Positions 6,453 to 29,180 of a DNA stretch of 32,000 nt are shown here, in pieces. The stretch comes from Halomicrobium mukohataei DSM 12286 (GTDB lineage Archaea; Halobacteriota; Halobacteria; Halobacteriales; Haloarculaceae). Both the position numbers and the translations under genes were made by a program. The stretch lies in the NCBI RefSeq assembly GCF_000023965.1, contig NC_013202.1, positions 2,640,001-2,672,000 of the forward strand. The letters are read 5' to 3'. Under the pieces are notes generated by a model that did not search any database, was not told where the DNA came from, and saw nothing but the letters and a program-made list of their open reading frames with translations. Each line of letters opens with the position of its first letter. Position 1 is the stretch's first letter.

Positions 6453-7883
6453 TCAGAGCCCGATCGCGGGCGCGTTCTCGCGGACGACCGTCCTGAACTC
6501 TCCGGAGAGCGCCCAGAGAAGGGCGAAGTACGCCAGCGCGCCCACCACGACCAGCAGCGCTGCCGTCGCGGTGGGATCGACCAGCGGGAAGACCGGTCGT
6601 GCGACCCGTTCGACGGTCGCGACGACGACGCCCATCCCGGCGGCGGCGACCACCTGCGTCCCGATCCGTTTGACCGGGAGCGAGACCGAGACGTGGCTCC
6701 GCAGGACGAAGTAGCCGACGACGAAGCTCAGGACGACCGACGTCGCGGTCGCGACCGCCGCTCCGCGGATACGGTACTGCCAGATCAGCGCGAAGTTGAG
6801 GACGACGTTGGACACGACGAGGACGGCGTTGACCTTGAACGCCTCGCCGGGCCGGTCGATGCCGCTGAGTGCGTTGACGATCTGGCTCTGGTAGCCGTAG
6901 ACGAGGACGGCGACGATGAGTAGCCACAGCACCTCGGTCCCCTTGAGGAACTCCGAGCCGTAGATCTGCAAGAGGCGATCGCTCAACAGGACCCCGCCGA
7001 CCAGCCCCGGAATCGTGAACAGGCCCGCGTAGGCGAACGAGTCCTCGACCAGCGACGACACCCGCTCGAAGCTGTCCTCGGCCGAGAGCTTGCTCAGCTC
7101 CGGGAACAGCGCCGAGCTGATAGCGTTGCTGAAGATGATGAGGAAGTTCGCGAGGCTCCACGTGATCGCGTAGACGCCCACGAGCTCGTCGGAGACGAAG
7201 ACACCGAGGACCAGTACGTCTGCCTGGTTGAACGTCTTGCCCCGGATGCGCCCGAGCCAGGCGTACCTCGCGTACTCGTAGAGGCTCTCGAAGTGTGCCC
7301 GCGTCGGCAGTCGGTACGGACGGCCGACGAAGTACAGCCCGACGACGACGACGACGAGGCTCCCGGCCGCGTAGCCGTAGACGAGCGCGGCCAGCCCGAA
7401 CGACAGCAGGATACCGCCGACCTGCAGAGCGGTCCGGACGATCTGTCGGACCGGCCGCAGCGACGACGCGACGTGGACCAGATGGACGCCGTTCAGCATC
7501 GAGTCGACGTACGAACTCGCCACGCCGACGAGCAGCAAGACCGCGACGAACTCGACCCGACGGATGTCGAACAACTGCTCGACCAGCCCCTCGCCGAGGA
7601 AGAGGAGGACGACGATCGAGCCCGTCAGCGCGGCCATACAGAGCCCGCCAGCGACCTTGTAGGCACCCCGATCCTCGCCTTCGCTCAGCCGTTTGGCGAT
7701 CGCGCTCTCGAAGCCCAGCGTCCCGGCGAGGGCCAGCCACGCGACGATCGAGAGCAACAGGTAGTACCGACCCAGCACGTCCGCGCCCAGCAGCCGGGCG
7801 AACACGATGGTCCCGACGAACCCCGCGCCAGAAGCGAGAAACTTGGAGACGAACGTGACGAACGAGGTCTGGCCGATGCGCAT
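6453..7883 (-). CDS. Polysaccharide/oligosaccharide flippase (MOP superfamily, Wzx/AglR-like)
   Basis: Track ORF 6453..7988 trimmed to ATG 7883 (MRIGQTSFVTFVSKFLASGAGFVGTIVFARLLG). It is about 476 aa with hydrophobic helices throughout (12 or more predicted by eye). It sits in the glycosylation cluster. Confidence 0.75.
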   Translation of the reverse strand: MRIGQTSFVTFVSKFLASGAGFVGTIVFARLLGADVLGRYYLLLSIVAWLALAGTLGFESAIAKRLSEGEDRGAYKVAGGLCMAALTGSIVVLLFLGEGLVEQLFDIRRVEFVAVLLLVGVASSYVDSMLNGVHLVHVASSLRPVRQIVRTALQVGGILLSFGLAALVYGYAAGSLVVVVVGLYFVGRPYRLPTRAHFESLYEYARYAWLGRIRGKTFNQADVLVLGVFVSDELVGVYAITWSLANFLIIFSNAISSALFPELSKLSAEDSFERVSSLVEDSFAYAGLFTIPGLVGGVLLSDRLLQIYGSEFLKGTEVLWLLIVAVLVYGYQSQIVNALSGIDRPGEAFKVNAVLVVSNVVLNFALIWQYRIRGAAVATATSVVLSFVVGYFVLRSHVSVSLPVKRIGTQVVAAAGMGVVVATVERVARPVFPLVDPTATAALLVVVGALAYFALLWALSGEFRTVVRENAPAIGL

Positions 7884-7914
7884 CCCTATCGAGTCGAACG
7901 TCGGCAAGCAGTGG

Positions 7915-7922
7915 TTTATATT
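7915..7922 (-). promoter_or_regulatory. TATA box (AATATAAA on the minus strand) for the flippase gene
   Basis: AT-rich octamer in the GC-rich 142-bp divergent spacer, about 35 nt upstream of ATG 7883. Confidence 0.4.
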
Positions 7923-7994
7923 GGACGGTTCGGCGACCGTCGGTCGGGGTCCGAACCGTTCCACGGCGGTGCCCCGCCGGCCGACCACCGTGGT

Positions 7995-8000
7995 CTATAT
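7995..8000 (+). promoter_or_regulatory. TATA box (CTATAT) for the GT4 gene at 8026
   Basis: Centred 28 nt upstream of ATG 8026, implying a leaderless transcript. Confidence 0.45.
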
Positions 8001-8025
8001 CCGTGGCCGGAATATCCCCTCGGAC

Positions 8026-9204
8026 ATGGCGCGCGTCCTCATCGCCCCGGCGGACACCAGTCTCTCGAATCTGCGGTACGGCAAGAGCTACAACGTGTTG
8101 AACAACATGACCGCAGACGACGTGTGGATCGACGCGCTGGTCGGGAAAGAGGAGACGACGGTCGAAGCCGAGAACGTCACCGTTCGGGAGCTGGGGACGC
8201 AAAACAGACTGCAGTACTACGGCCGGTCGTTCCGGACGGCCGCCCGCGAGATCCGGGCCGGATCTGTCGACATCTACCACCACATGAACCTGAGCTACCG
8301 GTGGTTCAACCCCGTGTTGCTCGCCGGGATCGCCGCCGACACACCGACCGTCCTCGGCCCGTGCCAGACCGGGCACGCGATCATGGCCGAAGAGTTCAAC
8401 AACATGCTCTCACAGGCGATCGGCTACGAGCTCCCGCTGCCGGTCAGTAACGCGGTCTACTACCCGATGAACGCCGTCCGCGACGTGACGATCGACCCCG
8501 CCCGGATGTCGCTGTTCCGGCGGACCCTCGAAGCCGCCGACCGGATCACCGTCGTCCACGAGGAGGCGCGCGAAGCGTACGCGCGATACGTGGACGAGTC
8601 GAAGATCGACGTGATCCCCCTCGGCGTCGACGTGGAGCTGTTCGAGTTCACGGAGCGCCAGGACACGGAGACGCTGGTCGCGATCGGACGACTGGAACGG
8701 CGAAAAGGGTACGACGTACTCCTCGACGCGCTCGCGACCGTCGTCGAAGCCGTCCCGAACGTCCATCTCGACGTGTTCGGCGAGGGGCCCGAAGAGCAGG
8801 CGCTTCGCGAACAGGCGGCCCGCCTCGGCGTCGCGGACAACGTCACCTTCCACGGGTACGTCGACCAGTCGGTGGTTCGGGACCACCTCGCGCGGGCCAG
8901 AGCGTTCGTCCACCCGTCGCGTTCCGAGAGCTTCTCGCTGGTCCGACTGGAAGCGATGGCGGTCGGCTGTCCGGTCGTCGTCACCGACACCTCCGGCGCA
9001 CACGAGATGGTCCGAGACGGTAACGAGGGGTTCGTCGTCCCGACGGAGGCGGCCGAGCCGATCGCCGACGCGCTGCTGGAACTGCTCTCTGACTTCGAGC
9101 TGGCGCGGGCGATGGGAGCGCGCGCTCGCGAACGCGTCGAACGGAAGTACGACTGGCGAGCGATCGGACAGCAGTACGTCGACCTGTACAGATCGCTCCT
9201 GTAG
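8026..9204 (+). CDS. GT4-family glycosyltransferase
   Basis: Track ORF 7807..9204 trimmed to ATG 8026 (MARVLIAPAD...), because the upstream part overlaps the divergent promoter and flippase gene. Motifs: AIGRLERRKGYD and ESFSLVRLEAMAVGCPVVVTDTSGAHEMV. Confidence 0.8.
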   Translation: MARVLIAPADTSLSNLRYGKSYNVLNNMTADDVWIDALVGKEETTVEAENVTVRELGTQNRLQYYGRSFRTAAREIRAGSVDIYHHMNLSYRWFNPVLLAGIAADTPTVLGPCQTGHAIMAEEFNNMLSQAIGYELPLPVSNAVYYPMNAVRDVTIDPARMSLFRRTLEAADRITVVHEEAREAYARYVDESKIDVIPLGVDVELFEFTERQDTETLVAIGRLERRKGYDVLLDALATVVEAVPNVHLDVFGEGPEEQALREQAARLGVADNVTFHGYVDQSVVRDHLARARAFVHPSRSESFSLVRLEAMAVGCPVVVTDTSGAHEMVRDGNEGFVVPTEAAEPIADALLELLSDFELARAMGARARERVERKYDWRAIGQQYVDLYRSLL

Positions 9205-9223: not shown

Positions 9224-9302
9224 ATACTGCCGGCTGTCACTGTTTCACGATATTCGCGAGATGGGGTCGCGAAATTCGTCACAGACGGACAGTCGGTAGT
9301 AA
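9224..9302 (+). repeat. Family B nested-hairpin repeat, copy B1
   Basis: Outer arms TACTGCCGGCTGTC (9225-9238) and GACAGTCGGTAGTA (9288-9301) pair over 14 bp, two of them G:T. Inner stem is TTCGCGA/TCGCGAA (9253-9259 / 9267-9273). The 5' arm ATACTGCCGGCTGTCAC recurs at 16279 and, reverse-complemented, at 10665-10681. Confidence 0.7.
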
Positions 9303-9400
9303 AACCCGACCGCTTAAATGGAACTGCCGACACCTTCCGGTACTCGACCGGGCGACCGGCGTCGCCCACCGAGGCCGTGACGACCACGGGAGATCCAGTG

Positions 9401-10471
9401 ATGAACGTCGCAATAACTGTCAAGGAGTTTCCCCCCGACATCATCGGCGGGACCGAGACCCAGACGCGCCGAATGGCCCGCGCGCTCTCCGGGGCCGGAC
9501 ACGACGTGACCGTCTACACGAAGGCCTACGGCCGCGAGACGGAGGTCGACGAGCCCTACGAGATCGTCCGGGTCCCCAACTGCCGGCGGTCGTCGTTTCT
9601 GAGTACGCTGACGTACCTGCTCGCACTGACTGCGTTGCTCGTCCGGGACCGGAACGAGATCGACGTGTTGCAGTGCATGATGATCTACCCCAACGGCTTC
9701 GTCGGGACGGTCGTCCACTATCTGACGGGAGTCCCCTACTTCGCGTGGATCCGGGGCGGGGACTACTACTTCATGAAGGACAATCCGGTCAAGCGGTGGC
9801 TGATACGGACCGTGCTGTGGGACACGACCGTCCTGGTCCAGTCGGAGGCGGTGAGAGCGGACGTGACCGCGGAGTTCGATCCGACGGACGTTCGCGTCCT
9901 CGGCAACGGCGTCGACGTGCCGGCGGGGACGGCGTCTGGCGACGAGATCGTGTTCGTCGGGCGGCTGGAAGAACAGAAGGGCGTGGCCGTCCTGCTCCGC
10001 GCACTGGCCGGGACTGAGGCGGCCTCCGCAGTCACCGTCGTCGGGGACGGCTCCCGGCGATCGGAGCTGGAGGCGCTGGCCGACGAGCTGGGCGTCGACG
10101 CGACGTTCGTCGGCGAGGTCGCCCCCGAGGCCGTCGGGGAGTATCTGGAGCGTGGCAGGCTCTTCGTGTTGCCGTCGGTCCGCGGCGAAGGGCTCCCCAA
10201 CGCCGTGCTGGAGGCGATGGCGGCCGGTCTCCCGGTCGTCGCCACGGATACCGGCGGCGTCGCAGACGCGATCGTGGACGGAGAGACGGGCTACGTCGTC
10301 GATCCGGGCGACGAGCAACGGCTGCGTGACCGTATCGAGACGATCTACGCCGACGAGCAGCGAGCCCGCGAGATGGGCGAGCGGGCCCGCGAGTACGTGA
10401 TCGAGACCTACTCGTGGGACGCGATCGTCGGACGCCTCGAAGCGCTGTACGCGGAGTGTACCGACCGCTGA
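9401..10471 (+). CDS. GT4-family glycosyltransferase
   Basis: Track ORF 9377..10471 starts at GTG; I prefer ATG 9401 (MNVAITVKEFPPDIIGGTETQTRRMARAL). Motifs: FVGRLEEQKG and EGLPNAVLEAMAAGLPVVATDTGGVADAIV. Confidence 0.8.
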   Translation: MNVAITVKEFPPDIIGGTETQTRRMARALSGAGHDVTVYTKAYGRETEVDEPYEIVRVPNCRRSSFLSTLTYLLALTALLVRDRNEIDVLQCMMIYPNGFVGTVVHYLTGVPYFAWIRGGDYYFMKDNPVKRWLIRTVLWDTTVLVQSEAVRADVTAEFDPTDVRVLGNGVDVPAGTASGDEIVFVGRLEEQKGVAVLLRALAGTEAASAVTVVGDGSRRSELEALADELGVDATFVGEVAPEAVGEYLERGRLFVLPSVRGEGLPNAVLEAMAAGLPVVATDTGGVADAIVDGETGYVVDPGDEQRLRDRIETIYADEQRAREMGERAREYVIETYSWDAIVGRLEALYAECTDR

Positions 10472-10589: not shown

Positions 10590-10681
10590 AGCTGTGGCTG
10601 TCAGTTGGCGCGTCGACTCGCCACCGGGACACGGGGGCCGTGTGACGGCGCTGCTATACGCTTAAGTGACAGCCGGCAGTA
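10590..10681. repeat. Family B-like hairpin, copy B4 (inverted relative to B1)
   Basis: GTGACAGCCGGCAGTAC (10665-10681) is the reverse complement of the B1 5' arm at 16 of 17 positions. It pairs with CTGTGGCTGTCA (10592-10603). Inner hairpin is ACACGG/CCGTGT (10629-10643). The interior is not alignable to B1/B2. Confidence 0.45.
10661..10667 (+). promoter_or_regulatory. TATA-like box (CTTAAGT) for the MBL hydrolase gene
   Basis: About 31 nt upstream of ATG 10695. The same CGCTTAARTG decamer occurs at 9311-9320 upstream of the GT4 gene at 9401. This box lies inside repeat B4. Confidence 0.4.
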
Positions 10682-10694
10682 CGTCCACGTGACC

Positions 10695-11414
10695 ATGGAG
10701 ATCACCTGGCACGGCCACTCGACGTTCCACGTAACGGTCGACAACACGGCACTCCTCGTCGATCCGTTCTTCGACAATCCGAAGACGGACCTGGAGCCCG
10801 GAGCGGTCGACGCCGACTACGTCCTGTTGACCCACGGTCACATGGACCACATCGCAGACGTCGGCGCGTTCCCCGACGCGACCGTGGTCGGACTGCCAGA
10901 GGTCGTCGGCTACTGTGCGGACAACTACGGCGTCTCGGAGACGATCGGCGCGAACCTCGGAGGGACCGTCGAACTCGGCGACGCGTTCGTCACCCTCCAC
11001 CGCGCCGACCACACGAACGGCATGGAGACCACCTACGAGTCGACCGGCGGTGGGATGCCGGCCGGCTTCGTCATCTCCGACACCAAGCCGACGCAGGTGT
11101 CAGACGCCGAATCGTCGACGTTCTACCACGCCGGTGACACGGGACTGATGACCGAGATGCGAGAGGTGATCGGTCCGTATCTGGAGCCCGACGTGGCCGC
11201 GGTCCCCATCGGCGATCACTTCACGATGGGGCCGATGCAGGCCGCGATCGCCGTCGATTGGCTAGACGTGGACGTGGCGTTGCCGATGCACTACGACACC
11301 TTCCCGCCGATCGAAGTCGATCCCGAGGAGTTCCGGCGTGAAGTTACTGCCACCGGGAGCTCCACAGAGGTGCGGATTCTGGCCGGCGACGAGTCGATCA
11401 CCGTCGCCGAGTGA
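10695..11414 (+). CDS. Metallo-beta-lactamase-fold hydrolase (UPF0173-like)
   Basis: Track ORF 10605..11414 (TTG start) trimmed to ATG 10695 ([13 protein letters not shown]). It carries the HxHxDH motif in [12 protein letters not shown] and is 239 aa. Confidence 0.8.
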
Positions 11415-11469: not shown

Positions 11470-11555
11470 TCATACGGACGGTTGTAGGCGTTTACCCAGT
11501 CGACCGCACGACGGCGTGCGGTCGATCTGGTAAAGACCTACAACTTTCCGTATCA
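11470..11555 (+). mobile_element. Family A 80-bp palindromic MITE-like element, copy A1, with TCA/TCA flanking duplication
   Basis: Core 11473-11552 is identical to 28986-29065 and 79/80 identical to 13062-13141. Terminal inverted repeats are TACGGA/TCCGTA. The flanking trinucleotide TCA occurs at 11470-11472 and at 11553-11555; the latter is the stop codon of the minus-strand dehydrogenase gene. Confidence 0.75.
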
Positions 11556-12449
11556 GTCGTCCGACGAGAGCGAGATGCCGGTCTGTTCGGCCAGCGGCTC
11601 GACGACGGCAGCCATGTCTCGGTCGCCGAGGCCGGCCGCTCGGGCACCGCTGAACAGTTCGCGGGCCGCTGCGGTGAGTTGCATCGGGACGCGGGCGTCG
11701 CCCGCCGCGTCCAGCGCCAGGTCCAGGTCCTTGAACTGGTAGTCGACGGGGAACCGCGAGTCGTAGTCGTCCGTTCGGATCTGCTGGCCCTTCGCCGAGA
11801 ACAGCGGCGAGTCGAGCGCGCCGTTCTCGACGACTTCGAGCATGTCCTCGATTTCGAGTGCCTGGTTCGCGCCGAAGGTCAGCGCCTCGGCGAGCGCGCC
11901 CATGGCGGTACCCAACAGGAGATTGACGAACAGCTTCATGCTGGTTCCCTGCCCGACCCCGCCACACCGGACGACGGGGTCACACATGGCCGATAGCACC
12001 GGCTCGACGTCGTCGATCACGTCGCCGTCGCCGCCGGCGAGTCCGACGAGCGTCCCCTCGCGGGCCGGGCCGACCGTCCCCGAGACGGGGCAGTCGAGAA
12101 AGCGGCCACCGTGCTCGCGGACGGCCTCGGCCGCCGCCAGCGTCTCGTCGCGACCGATCGTGCTCATCTGGACGACCGTCGTCGTCTCGTCTAGCCCCGC
12201 CAGGATACCGAAGTCCCGTTCGAGGACCTCGCCGACGGCCGTGCCGTCGGTGACGATCAGACAGACCACGTCGACGCGCTCGGTGAGGTGTTTCGGCGAG
12301 TCGGCGACGCTGACGCCCGCCTCGGCGAAGGGGCGCTCTCGCTCGGTCGTCCGGTTGTACACGGTGAGGTCGAACCCCGCGTCGTCGAGGTTCCAGGCCA
12401 TCGGCGCACCCATCGCACCGAGGCCGACGAAACCGACAGATCGTGCCAT
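11553..12449 (-). CDS. NAD(P)-dependent beta-hydroxyacid dehydrogenase (3-hydroxyisobutyrate / 6-phosphogluconate dehydrogenase-like family)
   Basis: Track ORF 11553..12587 trimmed to ATG 12449 (MARSVGFVGLGAMGAPMAWNL, a GxGxxG Rossmann motif). It is 298 aa. Confidence 0.8.
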   Translation of the reverse strand: MARSVGFVGLGAMGAPMAWNLDDAGFDLTVYNRTTERERPFAEAGVSVADSPKHLTERVDVVCLIVTDGTAVGEVLERDFGILAGLDETTTVVQMSTIGRDETLAAAEAVREHGGRFLDCPVSGTVGPAREGTLVGLAGGDGDVIDDVEPVLSAMCDPVVRCGGVGQGTSMKLFVNLLLGTAMGALAEALTFGANQALEIEDMLEVVENGALDSPLFSAKGQQIRTDDYDSRFPVDYQFKDLDLALDAAGDARVPMQLTAAARELFSGARAAGLGDRDMAAVVEPLAEQTGISLSSDD

Positions 12450-12516
12450 GTCACCGGGTTCGGTCGCCGGGGACTTCAAAACAGGGCCGGGAAAGAGTTT
12501 TGAGCCCCGCGCGAGC

Positions 12517-13044
12517 ATGTCAACTCGAATGATGGACCAGAGCCACGACCGGCAGCTGCGGGCGGAGCTGTATCTACGGGGGGACACCTACGGGACCTAC
12601 GACGCCCAGCGGGACGTGTTACAGCGGGTCCACGAACTCGAAACCGAGAACGTGATCGACGAGTCGAGCGTCGCCGACGAGTGGCAGCGCATCCGGACCC
12701 TGAACGAGGATCGCCGCGACGGCGCACTTGCCACCTACGACGAGTTCGCGGCCTGGGCACAGCGAAACGACTACGCGCTAGAGCCCGCGTTCGAACGACG
12801 GGCGCGGTCCTACGTCGGCCTCAGTCGGGTCGACGACGTCGTCGTCTTCCCGGTCGTCTCGCTGGCGATCTACGAGCGCGACCGGCTCCAGGCGGTCTTT
12901 CCGTGCTCGGACGGCGAGCGAAACTACCGCGTCCAGGACTGCCTGGACGCGTTCGAACGCGGCGACGAGCGGTGGCTCACGCAGTTCGACACGGTGACCG
13001 TCGACCGCACCGCGCCGCGGCTCGAACCGGGACTGGACGCCTGA
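12517..13044 (+). CDS. Conserved-looking acidic hypothetical protein
   Basis: 3' part of track ORF 11842..13044; the upstream part is antisense to the dehydrogenase gene. Starts at ATG 12517 (MSTRMMDQSHDRQLRAELYLRGDTYGTYDAQRDVLQRVHELE); ATGs at 12529 and 12532 are alternatives. Acidic, halophile-like composition. I recognise no motif. Confidence 0.55.
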   Translation: MSTRMMDQSHDRQLRAELYLRGDTYGTYDAQRDVLQRVHELETENVIDESSVADEWQRIRTLNEDRRDGALATYDEFAAWAQRNDYALEPAFERRARSYVGLSRVDDVVVFPVVSLAIYERDRLQAVFPCSDGERNYRVQDCLDAFERGDERWLTQFDTVTVDRTAPRLEPGLDA

Positions 13045-13058
13045 TCTACAGGAGCTAC

Positions 13059-13144
13059 TGATACGGATGGTTGTAGGCGTTTACCCAGTCGACCGCACGA
13101 CGGCGTGCGGTCGATCTGGTAAAGACCTACAACTTTCCGTATGA
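13059..13144 (+). mobile_element. Family A MITE-like element, copy A2, with TGA/TGA flanking duplication
   Basis: Core is 13062-13141, with a single difference from A1/A3 (T at 13068 instead of C, in an unpaired position). TGA occurs at 13059-13061 and 13142-13144. Confidence 0.75.
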
Positions 13145-14208: not shown

Positions 14209-14395
14209 GCGACTGGAGTCCGGCGCTGGCTCTCGGATGGACATCCAGGTCAAGGGGTCGCGCCTACCGAAGAGTCACAGAACGGCCCCGACCCTCACCG
14301 TCTCGATTCGGTCGGTGTACGGTCGGTACAGGTGAAGCACGTCTCATTCAGTATAGACGATATATTTAACCCCGTATTGTTCGATTAGACGGTTA

Positions 14396-14734
14396 ATGAC
14401 GGACTGGGAGCGTGTGAGACAGGAACTCGAAGAAGCGGGCTATTCTGGATTCGAGTTCGATAGCGGCGATACGGCTGTGTCGGGGCTGTCCGGTGAGTGG
14501 GTATCCGGTAAAATCCCACGCGAGGGAGGATTGAAACACGAGAATCAAACACTTTGGATGCGAATTCTCGACACGTTATCATGGAACGGTGGTACCGTGG
14601 ATGCTGCTCCAGAAAACGCCCCCGAAAGCATACGCAATATCGCCACTGAACACGGGTTGGAAGTCGTGATATTCACCGTCTCTGCCGAGGAGGTGCGAAT
14701 CGCACTTTGTGACCCCTCAAAACATGATCTGTAA
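14396..14734 (+). CDS. Orphan hypothetical protein (112 aa) in the low-GC island
   Basis: Clean ORF with ATG start. TATATTTA box at 14361-14368, about 31 nt upstream. A/T-ending codons are used, unlike the neighbouring genes. No recognisable motif. Confidence 0.5.
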   Translation: MTDWERVRQELEEAGYSGFEFDSGDTAVSGLSGEWVSGKIPREGGLKHENQTLWMRILDTLSWNGGTVDAAPENAPESIRNIATEHGLEVVIFTVSAEEVRIALCDPSKHDL

Positions 14735-14852
14735 CGGTGTGTTCGCACATGCACGGTTCAGCTATTCCACAGCCACTGGGGTAGAAAGCAACTATCATAT
14801 AGGATTTCCGACGACATACCGAATTATCGACGTGCTATCGTCTCGCGTCTCT

Positions 14853-14857
14853 TTTTG
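14853..14857 (+). terminator. Oligo-T tract (T5) downstream of the 112-aa ORF
   Basis: CTCTTTTTGAC lies in the convergent spacer. Archaeal termination commonly uses T-runs. Confidence 0.35.
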
Positions 14858-14864
14858 ACGGCGT

Positions 14865-15134
14865 TCAAATCATGTGTAGGAGTATTTGCAGCGATGTCAG
14901 TGCGACCGCTACAGCGAGAGCGAGGATGATGATGGATATCCCGACACTATATTCGCTGAACGGCGGATTCCGTCTCGACTGAAATAGCACGACAAGTCCG
15001 GTAACGAGGATGAGTACGTCGACGCCGACTTCGAGTCCCGATGCGGTGCCCTCGACGAAAACTCCGTTGATCGCTCTCAGTGCGCCTGTCAGGGTAAAGA
15101 GAACGCCGATCAGTTTGGAGGGTGAAACGTTCAC
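14865..15134 (-). CDS. Small hydrophobic membrane protein (89 aa, about 3 TM) in the low-GC island
   Basis: GTG start at 15134, with AT-rich GAGATTATTTCG (minus strand, 15153-15166) about 26 nt upstream. Hydrophobic segments: LIGVLFTLTGAL, VDVLILVTGLVVLF, VGISIIILALAVAVAL. Confidence 0.45.
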   Translation of the reverse strand: MNVSPSKLIGVLFTLTGALRAINGVFVEGTASGLEVGVDVLILVTGLVVLFQSRRNPPFSEYSVGISIIILALAVAVALTSLQILLHMI

Positions 15135-15380
15135 AACGAACCACTCGTGTCCGGGCGAAATAATCTCTTGTCATCTGAACAGCCACTCTCTCGAATTGCA
15201 GACATGCGACTGTCCTGCGCCCGGTGAGAGACAGACAGCGACGCCACGCGGATAGTTTGGTGGTGGCCGTCGCCGGTGGGTGATATCCGCACTTCGAACT
15301 GGCGACCTGTCACGCGGACTGACGGCCGGCGATGTGCGCGGTCGCGGGGGCCGCCAGCGCGGGATCGTTCCCCCGAGGTA

Positions 15381-15409: not shown

Positions 15410-16279
15410 ATGGCGCGCGTGCTCTGTGCCGGCCACGTCAACTGGGACGTAACGCTGCAGGTCGATCGGCTTCCGGGCCCGGACGGCGAGGCCCAGATCG
15501 TCGACCAGTGCCAGTCCGGCGGCGGGAGCGCGTCGAACGTCGCGGTCCTGCTGGCGGGCCTGGACGTGGAGACGACGCTGCTGGGCAGCGTCGGTGCCGA
15601 CGAACACGGCTGGCTGGCGGCGCGCGAACTCGATCGGGCGGGCGTCGAGACGGTGCTGGTCGAGGCCGACGACGCGACCGCGGTGAAGTACCTCGTCGTC
15701 GACGAGGGCGGCGAGGTGATGGTGCTGGGCAACGACGGCGCGAACGAGGCGTTCACGGCCGACGACCTCGAACCGGGGACCCTCGACACGACCGATCGGC
15801 TCCACCTGACGAGCCAGCGGCCGGCGACCGCCGTCGCGCTCGCCCGGCGGGCGACCGAAGCGGGCTGTCCAGTGAGCTTCGATCCGGGCCGACGGCTCGA
15901 CGAGCGCGACTACGAGCCTGTGCTCGCCGCGGTCGATCTGGTCTTTCTGAATCAGCGCGAGGCCGACATCGCCGCCGAGGCCGGGCTGCTGTCCGGCGTC
16001 GATCGCGTCGTGGTCAAGCACGGCGCGGGCGGGGCCGAGGTTCGGACCGACGGCGAGACGATCAGTCACCCCGGATTCGCCGTCGATCCGGTCGACACGA
16101 CTGGTGCCGGCGACGCGTTCGCGGCGGGGTTTCTCGCCGCTAGCCAGTCCGGTAGCGACGAGTACGCGCTGGCGGTGGGCAACGCCTGTGGCGCACTGGC
16201 AGCGAGAACCACCGGGGCGCGACTCCACGCGGAGTGGCGCGACGTCGAGGCGCTGCTCGACATCGGGCCGGGAGAGTGA
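15410..16279 (+). CDS. PfkB/ribokinase-family sugar(-phosphate) kinase; candidate ribose-1-phosphate kinase
   Basis: Track ORF 15332..16279 trimmed to ATG 15410 (MARVLCAGHVNWDV). PfkB signatures GGGSASNVA and DTTGAGDAFAAGFL are present. The specific substrate is inferred only from clustering with the R15P isomerase and RuBisCO. Confidence 0.8.
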   Translation: MARVLCAGHVNWDVTLQVDRLPGPDGEAQIVDQCQSGGGSASNVAVLLAGLDVETTLLGSVGADEHGWLAARELDRAGVETVLVEADDATAVKYLVVDEGGEVMVLGNDGANEAFTADDLEPGTLDTTDRLHLTSQRPATAVALARRATEAGCPVSFDPGRRLDERDYEPVLAAVDLVFLNQREADIAAEAGLLSGVDRVVVKHGAGGAEVRTDGETISHPGFAVDPVDTTGAGDAFAAGFLAASQSGSDEYALAVGNACGALAARTTGARLHAEWRDVEALLDIGPGE

Positions 16280-16357
16280 TACTGCCGGCTGTAACTTCGT
16301 TCAGATATTCGCCACCCTGGGGTGGCGAAATCCGTGACAGATTTACAGCCGGTATAG
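16279..16357 (+). repeat. Family B nested-hairpin repeat, copy B2
   Basis: Starts at the last base of the kinase stop codon (TGA 16277-16279). Outer stem CCGGCTGTAA/TTACAGCCGG (16285-16294 / 16343-16352). Inner perfect 9-bp stem TTCGCCACC/GGTGGCGAA (16308-16316 / 16321-16329), loop CTGG. Confidence 0.7.
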
Positions 16358-16362
16358 TAACA

Positions 16363-16426
16363 ATTGAAACGATTTACACACCGATCGCACTGCAGTCGTG
16401 CGATCGGGTGTGCATTGATTTTCAAT
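16363..16426. terminator. Long GC-rich hairpin with flanking T-tracts; candidate bidirectional terminator between convergent kinase genes
   Basis: Stem CACACCGATCGCAC (16377-16390), loop TGCAGTC, then GTGCGATCGGGTGTG (16398-16412), giving 14 bp with one bulge. Outer pairing is ATTGAAA/TTTCAAT (16363-16369 / 16420-16426). It is followed by GATTTTC on the plus strand and CGTTTC on the minus strand. Confidence 0.5.
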
Positions 16427-16443
16427 GGCTACTATAGTATGAG

Positions 16444-17460
16444 TCAGGGCCGCGGGAGCGCCTCGACGAGGCGCTCGAACTCCTGGCGGTACTGGGCCTC
16501 TGCGCGTGCCCGTGCGAGGCCGGAGTCCTCTGCGAACGATCCCTCGAACCCGCCCATCCGCCACAGCAGCGTCGAGAGCTGGTAGATCGGGCGTTTCAGG
16601 ACGTACTCCTCGTCGAAGGCGAAGGGGCGTTCGCTGTTGTACCCCTCGTAGAGAGCGCTCCGGAGGCGCTCACGGACGCTCTCGTCCTGGAACGACGAGT
16701 CGACGAAGAGAAACTCCGTCTGTGCGAGGTGGTACTCCGGGAGCGCGGCGAGGACGTCCTGCCAGTCGAGCACGGCGGTGATCGGGTCGTCCAGCGTCGG
16801 ATCGAACAGGAGATTCGCCGGCCGGAAGTCGTCGTGGACCAGCCGCGGGACCCCCTCCTCGGGGACGAGCGAGAGCGCCGGCTTCAGGTTGCGCTCGGCC
16901 CGCTCGCGCAGGTCCGCGAACGGCGTGTGCGCGAGGCCGTCCAGGTGAGCCGTCGTCAGTTGCTCGAAGTACGCACGCCAGCTGGCGGTCAGATCCCGGA
17001 CGATGATCCGGTCGTTCCAGAGGTCCAGCCAGCCGAACGCCTCGAACGCGATCTCGGAGTGGAGATCGCCGAGCATGCGGCCGACCTGTTTCAGGACGCG
17101 CTCGTGGTCGGCCGTCGAGAGGTCGGCGTAGCTCTCCGCGAGATTGTCCCCTTCGAGACGCGCCGTCACGAAGTACGGCGGGACGGCGACTTCGGGCTCC
17201 TGTTCGAACACGAGGATATCCGGCACCGGCAGCGTCGTTCGCTCCGAGACGTAGTCGTGGAGCGTGGGCTCGACGGCGAACGACTCCATGTCGTCGGGCT
17301 CGAACTTCACGACGACCTCGTACTCCTGGCCGGCGTGTTCGAGCGTCACCATGTACACGTCGCTCTGGTGGCCACTGCCCGGTCGCTCGAACGAAAAGTC
17401 AGTGTAGTCCGGCCCGGACTCCTCCAGAACGGCTTCGATGTCGGTGACGGGAGTCGACAC
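16444..17460 (-). CDS. Aminoglycoside-phosphotransferase/choline-kinase-fold (APH-like) kinase, substrate unknown
   Basis: Track ORF 16444..18024 trimmed to GTG 17460 (VSTPVTDIEAVLEESGPDYTDFSFERPGSGHQSDVYMV). The first internal Met would remove the Gly-rich nucleotide loop. Catalytic motif HDDFRPANLLF and metal-binding VLDWQD are present. A TATA-like ATTTTTG lies about 28 nt upstream. Confidence 0.7.
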   Translation of the reverse strand: MSTPVTDIEAVLEESGPDYTDFSFERPGSGHQSDVYMVTLEHAGQEYEVVVKFEPDDMESFAVEPTLHDYVSERTTLPVPDILVFEQEPEVAVPPYFVTARLEGDNLAESYADLSTADHERVLKQVGRMLGDLHSEIAFEAFGWLDLWNDRIIVRDLTASWRAYFEQLTTAHLDGLAHTPFADLRERAERNLKPALSLVPEEGVPRLVHDDFRPANLLFDPTLDDPITAVLDWQDVLAALPEYHLAQTEFLFVDSSFQDESVRERLRSALYEGYNSERPFAFDEEYVLKRPIYQLSTLLWRMGGFEGSFAEDSGLARARAEAQYRQEFERLVEALPRP

Positions 17461-28190: not shown

Positions 28191-28985
28191 ATGGACCGCA
28201 GGCTCGTCGCCGTTCTCACGACGGTACTCCTGGCGGGCTGTGGCGGCATGGCGACCTCCGACGGCGGCACCGAGACGCTCACCCCGGCCCCGGTTCCGGA
28301 GCCGGCCGACGCGACGACAGAGACGGGGGCACTCCCGCCGGGCGTCACCGGGAACGGCGTCGCGAACGTCGACCGGCTCACCGCCGCACATCGGCGCGCG
28401 ACGGCCGACCAGTCGTACACCCTCACGACGGAGCGGTCGACGAGCCGCCAGAGGGCCAACGAGACCCTCGACACGCGACAGGTCGTCCAGGTAGCCAACG
28501 AGTCGACGTACGCCTACTGGACGAACGAGCGCGTCGTCTGGGACGAGAGCCGGGCTCGCTACTTCGACAACTACTCCGAGTTTCAGGGCCCCGACGGCCG
28601 GTACGTCCGCTACACCGAACTGGACGGCGAGACCCGACAGCGCCAACTCGGCTCGACGGCCCCGCGTCCCGAACTCGACAGGGAGGCGACGGTCGCCATC
28701 GAGCGGTTCCTGACCATCGACAACGCGACCGTCAGCGTCCTGCGAGACGACGGCCAGCGCCACTACGAACTACGGGGCGAGCAGCGAACCTTCGTCACCG
28801 AGCGCCCGATCCGGAACGTCTCGGTCAGCGCGGTGATCAGACACGACGGGCTCGTGCGGTCGCTCTCGGTGCGCTACTGGCGGGGCGACAGCGACTGGGG
28901 CGAGTTCGTTCGCTACTCGTTCGCGTACGAGCGGCTCGGGACGACGACCGTCGAGAAACCGTCGTGGGTCCGGACGAGCGACTGA
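28191..28985 (+). CDS. Secreted lipoprotein, function unknown
   Basis: MDRRLVAVLTTVLLAGCGG has a signal peptide with lipobox (LAGC), followed by a Thr/Pro-rich linker. It is 264 aa. ACTTTTGA box about 26 nt upstream. Confidence 0.7.
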   Translation: MDRRLVAVLTTVLLAGCGGMATSDGGTETLTPAPVPEPADATTETGALPPGVTGNGVANVDRLTAAHRRATADQSYTLTTERSTSRQRANETLDTRQVVQVANESTYAYWTNERVVWDESRARYFDNYSEFQGPDGRYVRYTELDGETRQRQLGSTAPRPELDREATVAIERFLTIDNATVSVLRDDGQRHYELRGEQRTFVTERPIRNVSVSAVIRHDGLVRSLSVRYWRGDSDWGEFVRYSFAYERLGTTTVEKPSWVRTSD

Positions 28986-29068
28986 TACGGACGGTTGTAG
29001 GCGTTTACCCAGTCGACCGCACGACGGCGTGCGGTCGATCTGGTAAAGACCTACAACTTTCCGTATGA
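28983..29068 (+). mobile_element. Family A MITE-like element, copy A3, with TGA/TGA flanking duplication
   Basis: Core 28986-29065 is identical to A1. TGA at 28983-28985 is the lipoprotein stop codon. TGA at 29066-29068 abuts repeat B3. Confidence 0.75.
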
Positions 29069-29147
29069 TACCGCCAGCCGTACCTTCGTGCGGGTATTCG
29101 CCACCCCGGGGTGGCAACGTTCGTCACGGCCGTCCAGCGGGCAGTAC
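29068..29147 (+). repeat. Family B nested-hairpin repeat, copy B3 (diverged)
   Basis: ATACCGCCAGCCGTACCTTCGTGCGGGTATTCGCCACCCCGGGGTGGCAACGTTCGTCACGGCCGTCCAGCGGGCAGTA aligns with B2 along its length. Inner stem is GCCACC/GGTGGC (29100-29105 / 29110-29115). Outer arms pair at 8 of 10 positions. Confidence 0.6.
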
Positions 29148-29180
29148 GAACCGCCAATCGGGGGACGAAGGCCCGCCTCG

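Follow-up and report, generated by a model that had tools for sequence, protein, structure and literature searches.

The 32,000-nt stretch of the Halomicrobium mukohataei DSM 12286 genome analysed here (contig NC_013202.1, positions 2,640,001 to 2,672,000; hereafter the window) is haloarchaeal DNA of 67% GC and contains four copies, B1 to B4, of a short element termed family B, which an initial annotation had described as a group of nested hairpins of about 80 nt. Copies were located with a profile hidden Markov model (HMM) built from 131 aligned family-B copies and searched with nhmmer. B1 (9225-9301, plus strand, 77 bp; E = 3.8e-16) is flanked by the GT4 glycosyltransferase genes at 7807-9204 and at 9377-10471 and begins 20 nt downstream of the TAG at 9202-9204, as had been annotated; two C>T changes are present in its 3′ arm, the two G:T pairs reported for its outer stem are there, and its flanks, GAA and AAA, are a degraded target duplication. 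B2 (main body 16280-16354, plus strand, TACTGCCGGCTGT...ACAGCCGGTA; E = 4.3e-22) is located where a PfkB kinase gene converges with a gene for an APH-family kinase, and it directly abuts the PfkB stop codon (TGA, 16277-16279, plus strand), again in agreement with the first description. B3 (29069-29146, plus strand, 78 bp, decayed; E = 9.3e-15) is flanked by TGA (29066-29068) and CGA (29147-29149), between a DUF7537 gene and a convergent fumarase gene. B4 (10590-10681, minus strand, 92 nt) occupies the spacer between the glycosyltransferase gene ending at 10471 and a gene for a metallo-beta-lactamase-fold protein whose ATG is at 10696. One of its termini is intact (TACTGCCGGCTGTCAC), the other is degraded, and no duplication is recognisable around it.

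The arms and core attributed to B1, B2 and B3 were recovered by alignment and by the strong HMM matches, and the apical stems quoted for these three copies are correct. A 16-mer of the arm, with up to three mismatches allowed, has three occurrences in the window, where 0.18 would be expected. B4 stays in the family as a strongly decayed member with a weak HMM match (E = 5.5e-4), and the "gene relic" said to precede it is a weak open reading frame (ORF) only. A proposed fifth copy at 14217-14336 gave no HMM match even at E <= 10 and was aligned by MAFFT through long gaps only; it is not a family member. The four copies are resident insertions, most of them old, and differ in preservation: B2 is close to intact apart from an interruption, whereas decay is moderate in B1 and strong in B3 and B4.

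Family B extends well beyond the window. A scan of one genome per species that required both arms (TACTGCCGGCTGT, 40-70 nt, ACAGYCGG) returned at least 120 loci, and the matches listed comprise 116 haloarchaeal loci with 127 non-redundant copies, on which all statistics for 127 copies below are based. Hosts include Halomicrobium katesii, Halovenus, Haloarcula, Halapricum, Salinirussus, Natronomonas, the Natrialbaceae Halostagnicola and Natrarchaeobius, and many metagenome-assembled genomes (MAGs) of Halobacteriales. The copies are 70-79 bp long, with a mode of 78 bp (96 of the 127), too short for an ORF, and the element therefore has no coding capacity. Full-length copies were found on 12 haloarchaeal plasmid records, including megaplasmids, with no feature annotated beneath them, and an HMM scan that did not require intact arms identified 7 copies in the 150 kb of the Halomicrobium plasmid pLC1Hm-01. 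No family-B copy was found in the viral contigs of IMG/VR. In several MAGs there are groups of almost identical copies, a pattern that indicates recent bursts. Copies also often lie within about 100-300 bp of the ends of metagenome contigs (e.g., loci L018, L040, L011, L037, L083 and L098), suggesting that family B breaks short-read assemblies.

Comparison of the flanks of these copies revealed a target-site duplication. The 3 bp before TACTG and the 3 bp after CAGTA are identical in 100 of the 127 copies, and the duplicated triplet is TCA in 49, TGA in 36, TTA in 8, TAA in 6 and CGA in 1, so that all but one conform to TNA. The triplet is preceded by C in 78 and followed by G in 85 of the 127 copies. 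Among the 7 plasmid copies found with the HMM on pLC1Hm-01, 4 have clean duplications of the same pattern. Because the flanks form a direct repeat while the element itself is an inverted repeat, and because the middle base of the flanking triplet varies, these flanks represent a 3-bp duplication generated at a C|TNA|G target. The initial annotation had reported no clear duplication, which does not hold for the family.

Orthologous loci include pairs of empty and filled sites. Locus L044 is filled (...GGTAC-TGA-[element]-TGA) and L018 is empty (...GGTAC-TGA; ...GGTACTGA); likewise, L024 carries the element (...GAC-TGA-[element]-TGA) and both L022 and L115 are empty (...GACTGAG). The same comparison was possible for B2, using relatives that share the gene order IF-2B, PfkB, convergent APH and RuBisCO (L121, L122 and L124). 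The PfkB-APH spacer measures 164 nt in the window, compared with 24-27 nt or overlapping stop codons in these three relatives, and in L121 and L122 the PfkB gene has the same end (...GAGTGA) without the element. The duplication of B2 is hidden by family C (16355-16434), a palindromic element of 80 bp that is unrelated to B2, is nested within the 3′ end of B2 and is flanked by a TA duplication of its own (16353-16354 and 16435-16436). The displaced tip of B2, GTA (16437-16439, plus strand), is followed by the right TGA copy (16440-16442); the PfkB stop codon doubles as the left copy, and a single G (16443) separates the right copy from the APH stop (TCA, 16444-16446, minus strand). When family C is removed computationally, B2 regains its canonical form and a perfect TGA/TGA duplication, and B2, family C, the duplications and 1 nt together add up to the entire 164-nt spacer. 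B2 is identical at locus L027 of H. katesii DSM 19301, a close relative: the reverse complement of that locus aligns from window position 14819, 12 of 20 sampled 40-mers are identical, and the PfkB protein (289 aa) is 98% identical between the two.

B3 had been placed directly after the stop codon of the lipoprotein (DUF7537) gene. That stop codon (TGA, 28983-28985) is instead the left duplication of a copy of another family, A3 of family A (28986-29065, TGA/TGA), and B3 was inserted at the right-hand duplication of A3 (29066-29068). A search for an exact empty site of B3 and A3 in the relative L127 was unsuccessful, since the gene arrangement differs there (two DUF7537 paralogues) and the spacer is an unrelated 79-nt sequence; the difference is consistent with insertion of B3 and A3 in the window.

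Orthologous sites are thus polymorphic, and family B inserts, that is, it is mobile. The earlier judgement that these are not fresh MITEs (transposable elements of the miniature inverted-repeat kind) is contradicted by the empty and filled orthologous sites and by the near-identical recent bursts in other genomes. Family B displays every MITE trait that was checked, an autonomous partner aside: it is short, has inverted repeats, generates a target duplication and is dispersed as polymorphic copies. Accordingly, we consider it highly probable that family B is a 78-bp near-palindromic, non-autonomous DNA transposon of the MITE type that inserts at TNA. An old MITE family was among the three possibilities raised initially, and it is the one that gained support; a 3′ untranslated region (3′-UTR) RNA element did not.

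The 78-bp element is bounded by the near-invariant termini TACTGCCGGCTGT...ACAGCCGGCAGTA. Terminal inverted repeats of about 15 bp (TACTGCCGGCTGTAA/TTACAGCCGGCAGTA) form its two ends, its apex is a GC-rich palindrome (TTCGCCACCCCGGGGTGGCGAA), and the middle, between repeats and apex, is complementary in part. Conservation of the outer stem (positions 1-13 and 66-78) is at the level of sequence, and complementarity of pairs 1-13 exceeds 90%. Positions 1-13 and 66-73 were set by the scan pattern, so that this conservation is in part a matter of ascertainment; the plasmid copies recovered with the HMM are free of it and have the same ends. The middle contains asymmetric mismatches that are kept across genera (16:63, 18:61, 19:60, 22:57, 27:52 and 28:51), and in one of the two major clades 6 of its 15 pairs are complementary. 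Across the whole hairpin, 77.1% of pairs are complementary compared with 77.0% in a column-shuffle control. The covariation score is 0.125 against 0.106 for the control and was reached in none of 500 shuffles, with a control that ignores the relatedness of copies.

Compensatory double changes occur in one place only, the 11-bp apical stem. Pair 29:50 changed from TA to CG in six genome groups; pair 30:49 changed from TA to GC in Halovenus amylolytica (9 copies) and from TA to CG in three single copies; pair 33:46 changed from CG to AT in three single copies; pair 34:45 changed from CG to GC in the Halomicrobium subfamily that includes B1; and pair 35:44 changed from AT to GC in two MAGs (21 copies). 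The larger of these groups are fixed across subfamilies, and the changes therefore arose in master copies that later transposed. Some active subfamilies have fixed apical mismatches. The initial reading, selection on structure rather than on sequence, is thus correct in part: compensatory changes are found in the apical stem, but the outer stem is conserved in sequence, and the middle is not consistently complementary.

The association with stop codons follows largely from the target. Genes were called with a GC3-based caller, and a stop hit was scored when the duplication coincided exactly with the stop codon of an ORF that looked coding, which was the case for 42 of the 127 copies. For two plasmid copies, coding-sequence ends annotated by NCBI PGAP (70886 and 12940) directly adjoin the starts of the elements (70887 and 12941). 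Spacers before insertion were short (median 87 nt). Special targeting of stop codons was considered and rejected: a crude null model gave a 2- to 5-fold enrichment, but with a null calculated spacer by spacer, 34 of 70 copies were on a stop codon, compared with 24.5 expected for any TNA and 29.4 expected for TNA in the same C/G context. Stop-codon adjacency arises because TGA and TAA are themselves TNA, because spacers are compact and because intragenic insertions are lost; insertions on stop codons are harmless, since the duplication regenerates the codon. The association is thus almost entirely a by-product of target sequence, short spacers and purging. The 86 copies for which both flanking genes were called are distributed over convergent (26), divergent (21) and co-directional (39) spacers, and two further copies lie inside called ORFs.

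The interpretation favoured in the initial annotation was that family B is a structured RNA of 3′ UTRs, selected by the host for transcript stability, processing or termination. The RNA folds of B1 and B2 are indeed strong compared with shuffled sequences (z = -6.8 and -6.3, or about -6.5, at approximately -40 kcal/mol), some copies follow stop codons immediately, and the apical stem has compensatory substitutions. Bacterial MITEs such as Correia, ERIC and REP can alter mRNA stability when they are co-transcribed, and exaptation of an individual family-B copy is therefore occasionally possible. Against a host-selected RNA, the copies are randomly oriented: with orientation defined from the conserved asymmetric positions, the ratio is 13:10 relative to the gene whose stop codon is abutted and 11:8 relative to transcription in co-directional spacers. 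Nor do sense-strand mismatches show the excess of G:U over A:C expected of RNA pairing (33:30 and 18:17). Copies in divergent spacers, which are promoter-side, make up 21 of the 86 that could be classified, the element is missing at orthologous genes, pairing does not exceed the shuffle control, and stop-codon adjacency is accounted for by the target site. The fold is also lost in decayed copies: B3 no longer folds on the plus strand (RNA z = +0.5), and for single-stranded DNA the z scores fall from -9.9 for the consensus and -7.7 for the restored B2 to -4.65 for B1, about -2.3 for B4 and -0.1 for B3, so that family-B copies decay after insertion. Rfam 15 gave no match at the gathering score on either strand of the whole window, and no T-run of the intrinsic-terminator type, required as a U-tract for archaeal termination, follows any copy in the window, as the initial annotation had correctly noted. 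The data thus give no indication of selection on the fold as RNA, and we regard a host-selected 3′-UTR function as improbable.

The palindrome and its co-varying apical stem would also fit mobility of a single-stranded hairpin through a Y1/HUH enzyme, with the palindrome as recognition structure, in the manner of REP/RAYT or of the IS200/IS605-derived PATEs known in Haloquadratum. Such an origin would be in keeping with the failure to find a DDE transposase and with the abundance of PATEs and IS605-type elements in haloarchaea (PMC3119063). However, IS200/IS605 elements, PATEs and REPs have neither terminal inverted repeats nor target duplications (PMC3119063), whereas family B has true terminal inverted repeats and the 3-bp direct duplication described above; with a middle base that differs between sites, such a duplication can only stem from a double-strand cut that is staggered. 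This makes a Y1/HUH route very unlikely. We give equally little credence to the proposal that the copies are binding sites for a nucleoid or regulatory protein of the host, or cruciform motifs, spread by recombination and kept for chromosome function. The high conservation of the termini across genera, the CCCGGG in the apical palindrome and the intergenic location would be expected of such sites, but their presence at orthologous positions varies, near-identical copies occur in genome-specific bursts, insertions are nested in or tandem with other MITEs, and the copies have target duplications, occur on plasmids and decay over time. Each of these features is typical of selfish mobile DNA and not of conserved host sites. 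Family B is ordinary mobile DNA and not a demonstrated RNA regulatory element.

For a MITE inserting at TNA, the duplication suggests how the element would move. The IS1031 group of the IS5 family prefers TNA and is characterised by an exclusive 3-bp repeat (PMC12016507), and the NuwaII group related to PIF/Harbinger uses the target C|TNA|G (PMC4482050). A DDE transposase of the IS5 (IS1031-like) or PIF-Harbinger type would thus act in trans on family B by cut-and-paste transposition, an assignment of transposase type based on the duplication. The enzyme would cleave TNA with a stagger of 3 nt, and the duplication would result from gap repair. A sizeable fraction of the surviving insertions would then fall exactly on a stop codon, given that insertions in genes would be purged, that spacers are tiny and that the codon would be regenerated. 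More tentatively, the palindrome and the apical compensatory changes may be maintained in transposing master copies for the propagation of the element itself and not for a host RNA function. They might allow symmetric binding of the transposase, or extrusion of a hairpin or cruciform might juxtapose the two termini, which a 78-bp duplex would be too stiff to achieve by bending.

Several observations weigh against family B as a transposase-mobilised MITE of this type. A search of approximately 1 Mb of sequence (866 kb of haloarchaeal loci, the 32-kb window and 150 kb of plasmid) and of IMG/VR yielded neither an autonomous element nor a transposase with matching ends. Unpaired arms in all loci, searched with one mismatch allowed and with an arm that partly matches its own reverse complement, proved to be truncated copies or arms of neighbouring elements. 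The generic end motif combined with a matching TNA at a spacing of 40-5000 bp gave MITE-sized or composite matches only, an all-against-all BLASTP comparison of 3168 ORFs identified no multicopy ORF, and in the 150 kb of pLC1Hm-01 there was neither an annotated transposase nor a transposase domain in the ORFs of annotation gaps. The inverted repeat of ISLrh (GAACCTGTCTAGTATCT), one member of the IS1031 group (PMC12016507), is unlike the family-B termini. B1 and B4 of the window have no clean duplication; the small excess of stop-codon insertions over the matched null persists (P about 0.02); and simple end-binding by a transposase leaves both the apical compensatory changes and the conserved asymmetric mismatches unexplained.

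Family A, to which A3 belongs, is an 80-bp palindromic sister MITE with the end motif TACGGACGGTTGTAGG and has the pattern TACnGnCGGnTGTA in common with family B. Its other two copies in the window are A1 (11473-11552; TCA/TCA), whose right TCA (11553-11555) doubles as the stop codon of a minus-strand dehydrogenase gene (11553-12587), and A2 (13062-13141; TGA/TGA at 13059-13061 and 13142-13144), located 15 nt past the stop codon of an HTH_63 gene. Family C, with the ends TAGTAACAATTGAAA...TTTCAATGGCTACTA, has further copies at L023:6-85, L044:3876-3955 and L111:4388-4467. Families A and C have a core of about 35 nt in common (GCGTTT.C.C.GTCGAcCGCACGAC.GCGTGCGGTC) and differ in their termini and in the length of their duplications (TNA versus TA), which suggests that these MITEs may be modular or chimeric, with a common core hairpin joined to ends for different transposases. 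A third palindromic family of 78-80 bp (TACGGTCGGTTGT...ACAACCGACCGTA), also with TNA duplications, was found in the QS_5 and QS_6 Halobacteriales MAGs (L054:5680-5757, L061:3641-3718, L064:2594-2671 and 6467-6544, L070:980-1057, L095:1659-1736 and L049:5347-5426). MITEs of the same or a sister family often abut and share a single TNA (L001:1179-1272, L006:1362-1552, L013:904-990, L033:1248-1335 and L091:6335-6494); tandem and nested arrays are expected, since every insertion leaves a target on either side of the new copy.

The end motif TACnGnCGGnTGT and the TNA duplication are common to family A, family B and the third family. One could speculate that these three form a superfamily of ultra-short palindromic haloarchaeal MITEs in which the palindrome is kept because an extruded hairpin or cruciform would be required to unite the ends of so short an element during transposition, and which is moved by a single-copy, possibly domesticated IS5/PIF-like transposase and not by a conventional multicopy insertion sequence (IS), similar to the REP-RAYT arrangement but with DDE chemistry, the regenerated C-TGA-G serving as a "safe haven" for insertion. 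We hold this extended scenario to be doubtful. The lack of a parent IS in the approximately 1 Mb searched, the apical changes fixed in subfamilies and the core common to families A and C are compatible with it and do not demonstrate it.

Two further features of the window were noted. The IF-2B-family gene is separated from the PfkB gene by a segment of low GC content (14209-15330, about 1.1 kb, 47-56% GC), which includes the rejected fifth copy. The distance between these two genes is only about 45-50 nt in three syntenic relatives, and the two small ORFs in the segment (112 and 89 aa) have no Pfam match; the segment is probably a lineage-specific insertion of foreign DNA. At 10654-10696, B4 supplies an AT-rich stretch, CTATACGCTTAAGT, upstream of the metallo-beta-lactamase-fold gene, whose ATG is about 30 nt away. 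This is where the TATA box of a leaderless haloarchaeal transcript would be placed, and a contribution of B4 to a promoter is conceivable on grounds of position.

MITE sequence makes up much of several spacers in the window and, counted with the target duplications, all but 1 nt of the 164-nt PfkB-APH spacer. The copies are easily mistaken for conserved 3′-UTR motifs, given that a TNA preference in compact genomes produces an apparently "stop-codon-associated" motif, and their recognition prevents false regulatory annotation. Their insertion polymorphisms can be used as markers in haloarchaeal population genomics. Family B is also well suited to asking why palindromy persists in very short MITEs and which transposase mobilises them where genomes seem poor in IS elements.

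Among bacterial repeats, Correia elements of Neisseria, ERIC/IRU, RUP and REP/BIME are about 35-160 bp in length (REP being the shortest), form long hairpins, are intergenic and often near gene ends, and can be co-transcribed. Correia elements and RUP duplicate TA, REPs make no duplication, and effects on mRNA are documented for some of these repeats. Family B differs from Correia, RUP and REP in that it duplicates TNA. With MITEs mobilised by IS5 (IS1031 group) and with their eukaryotic relatives PIF/Harbinger-Tourist and NuwaII, family B has in common the TNA duplication, the C|TNA|G target, a short non-coding sequence, inverted repeats and many dispersed copies. It is unlike these in being only 78 bp long and nearly all one palindrome, and its termini (TACTGCCGGCTGT) do not resemble the sole IS1031-group repeat compared.

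In the literature searched, we found no description of family B, of its TNA duplication or of its spread over Haloarculaceae and Natrialbaceae; this includes the text of a 2024 MITE census, in which MAGs of Haloarculaceae and Halovenus stand out as the archaea richest in MITEs (PMC11602168). Haloarchaeal MITEs are known to target and nest within other mobile elements (PMC3119063, PMC7002104). The closest counterparts by host are HqIRS and MITEHwa of Haloquadratum walsbyi and MITEHsal of Halobacterium salinarum, which belong to the same host class and, like family B, are transposase-free inverted repeats with target duplications. These elements are mostly 100-520 bp long, have other termini and generate duplications of 5, 7 or 8 bp, whereas family B is 78 bp long and duplicates the 3-bp TNA.

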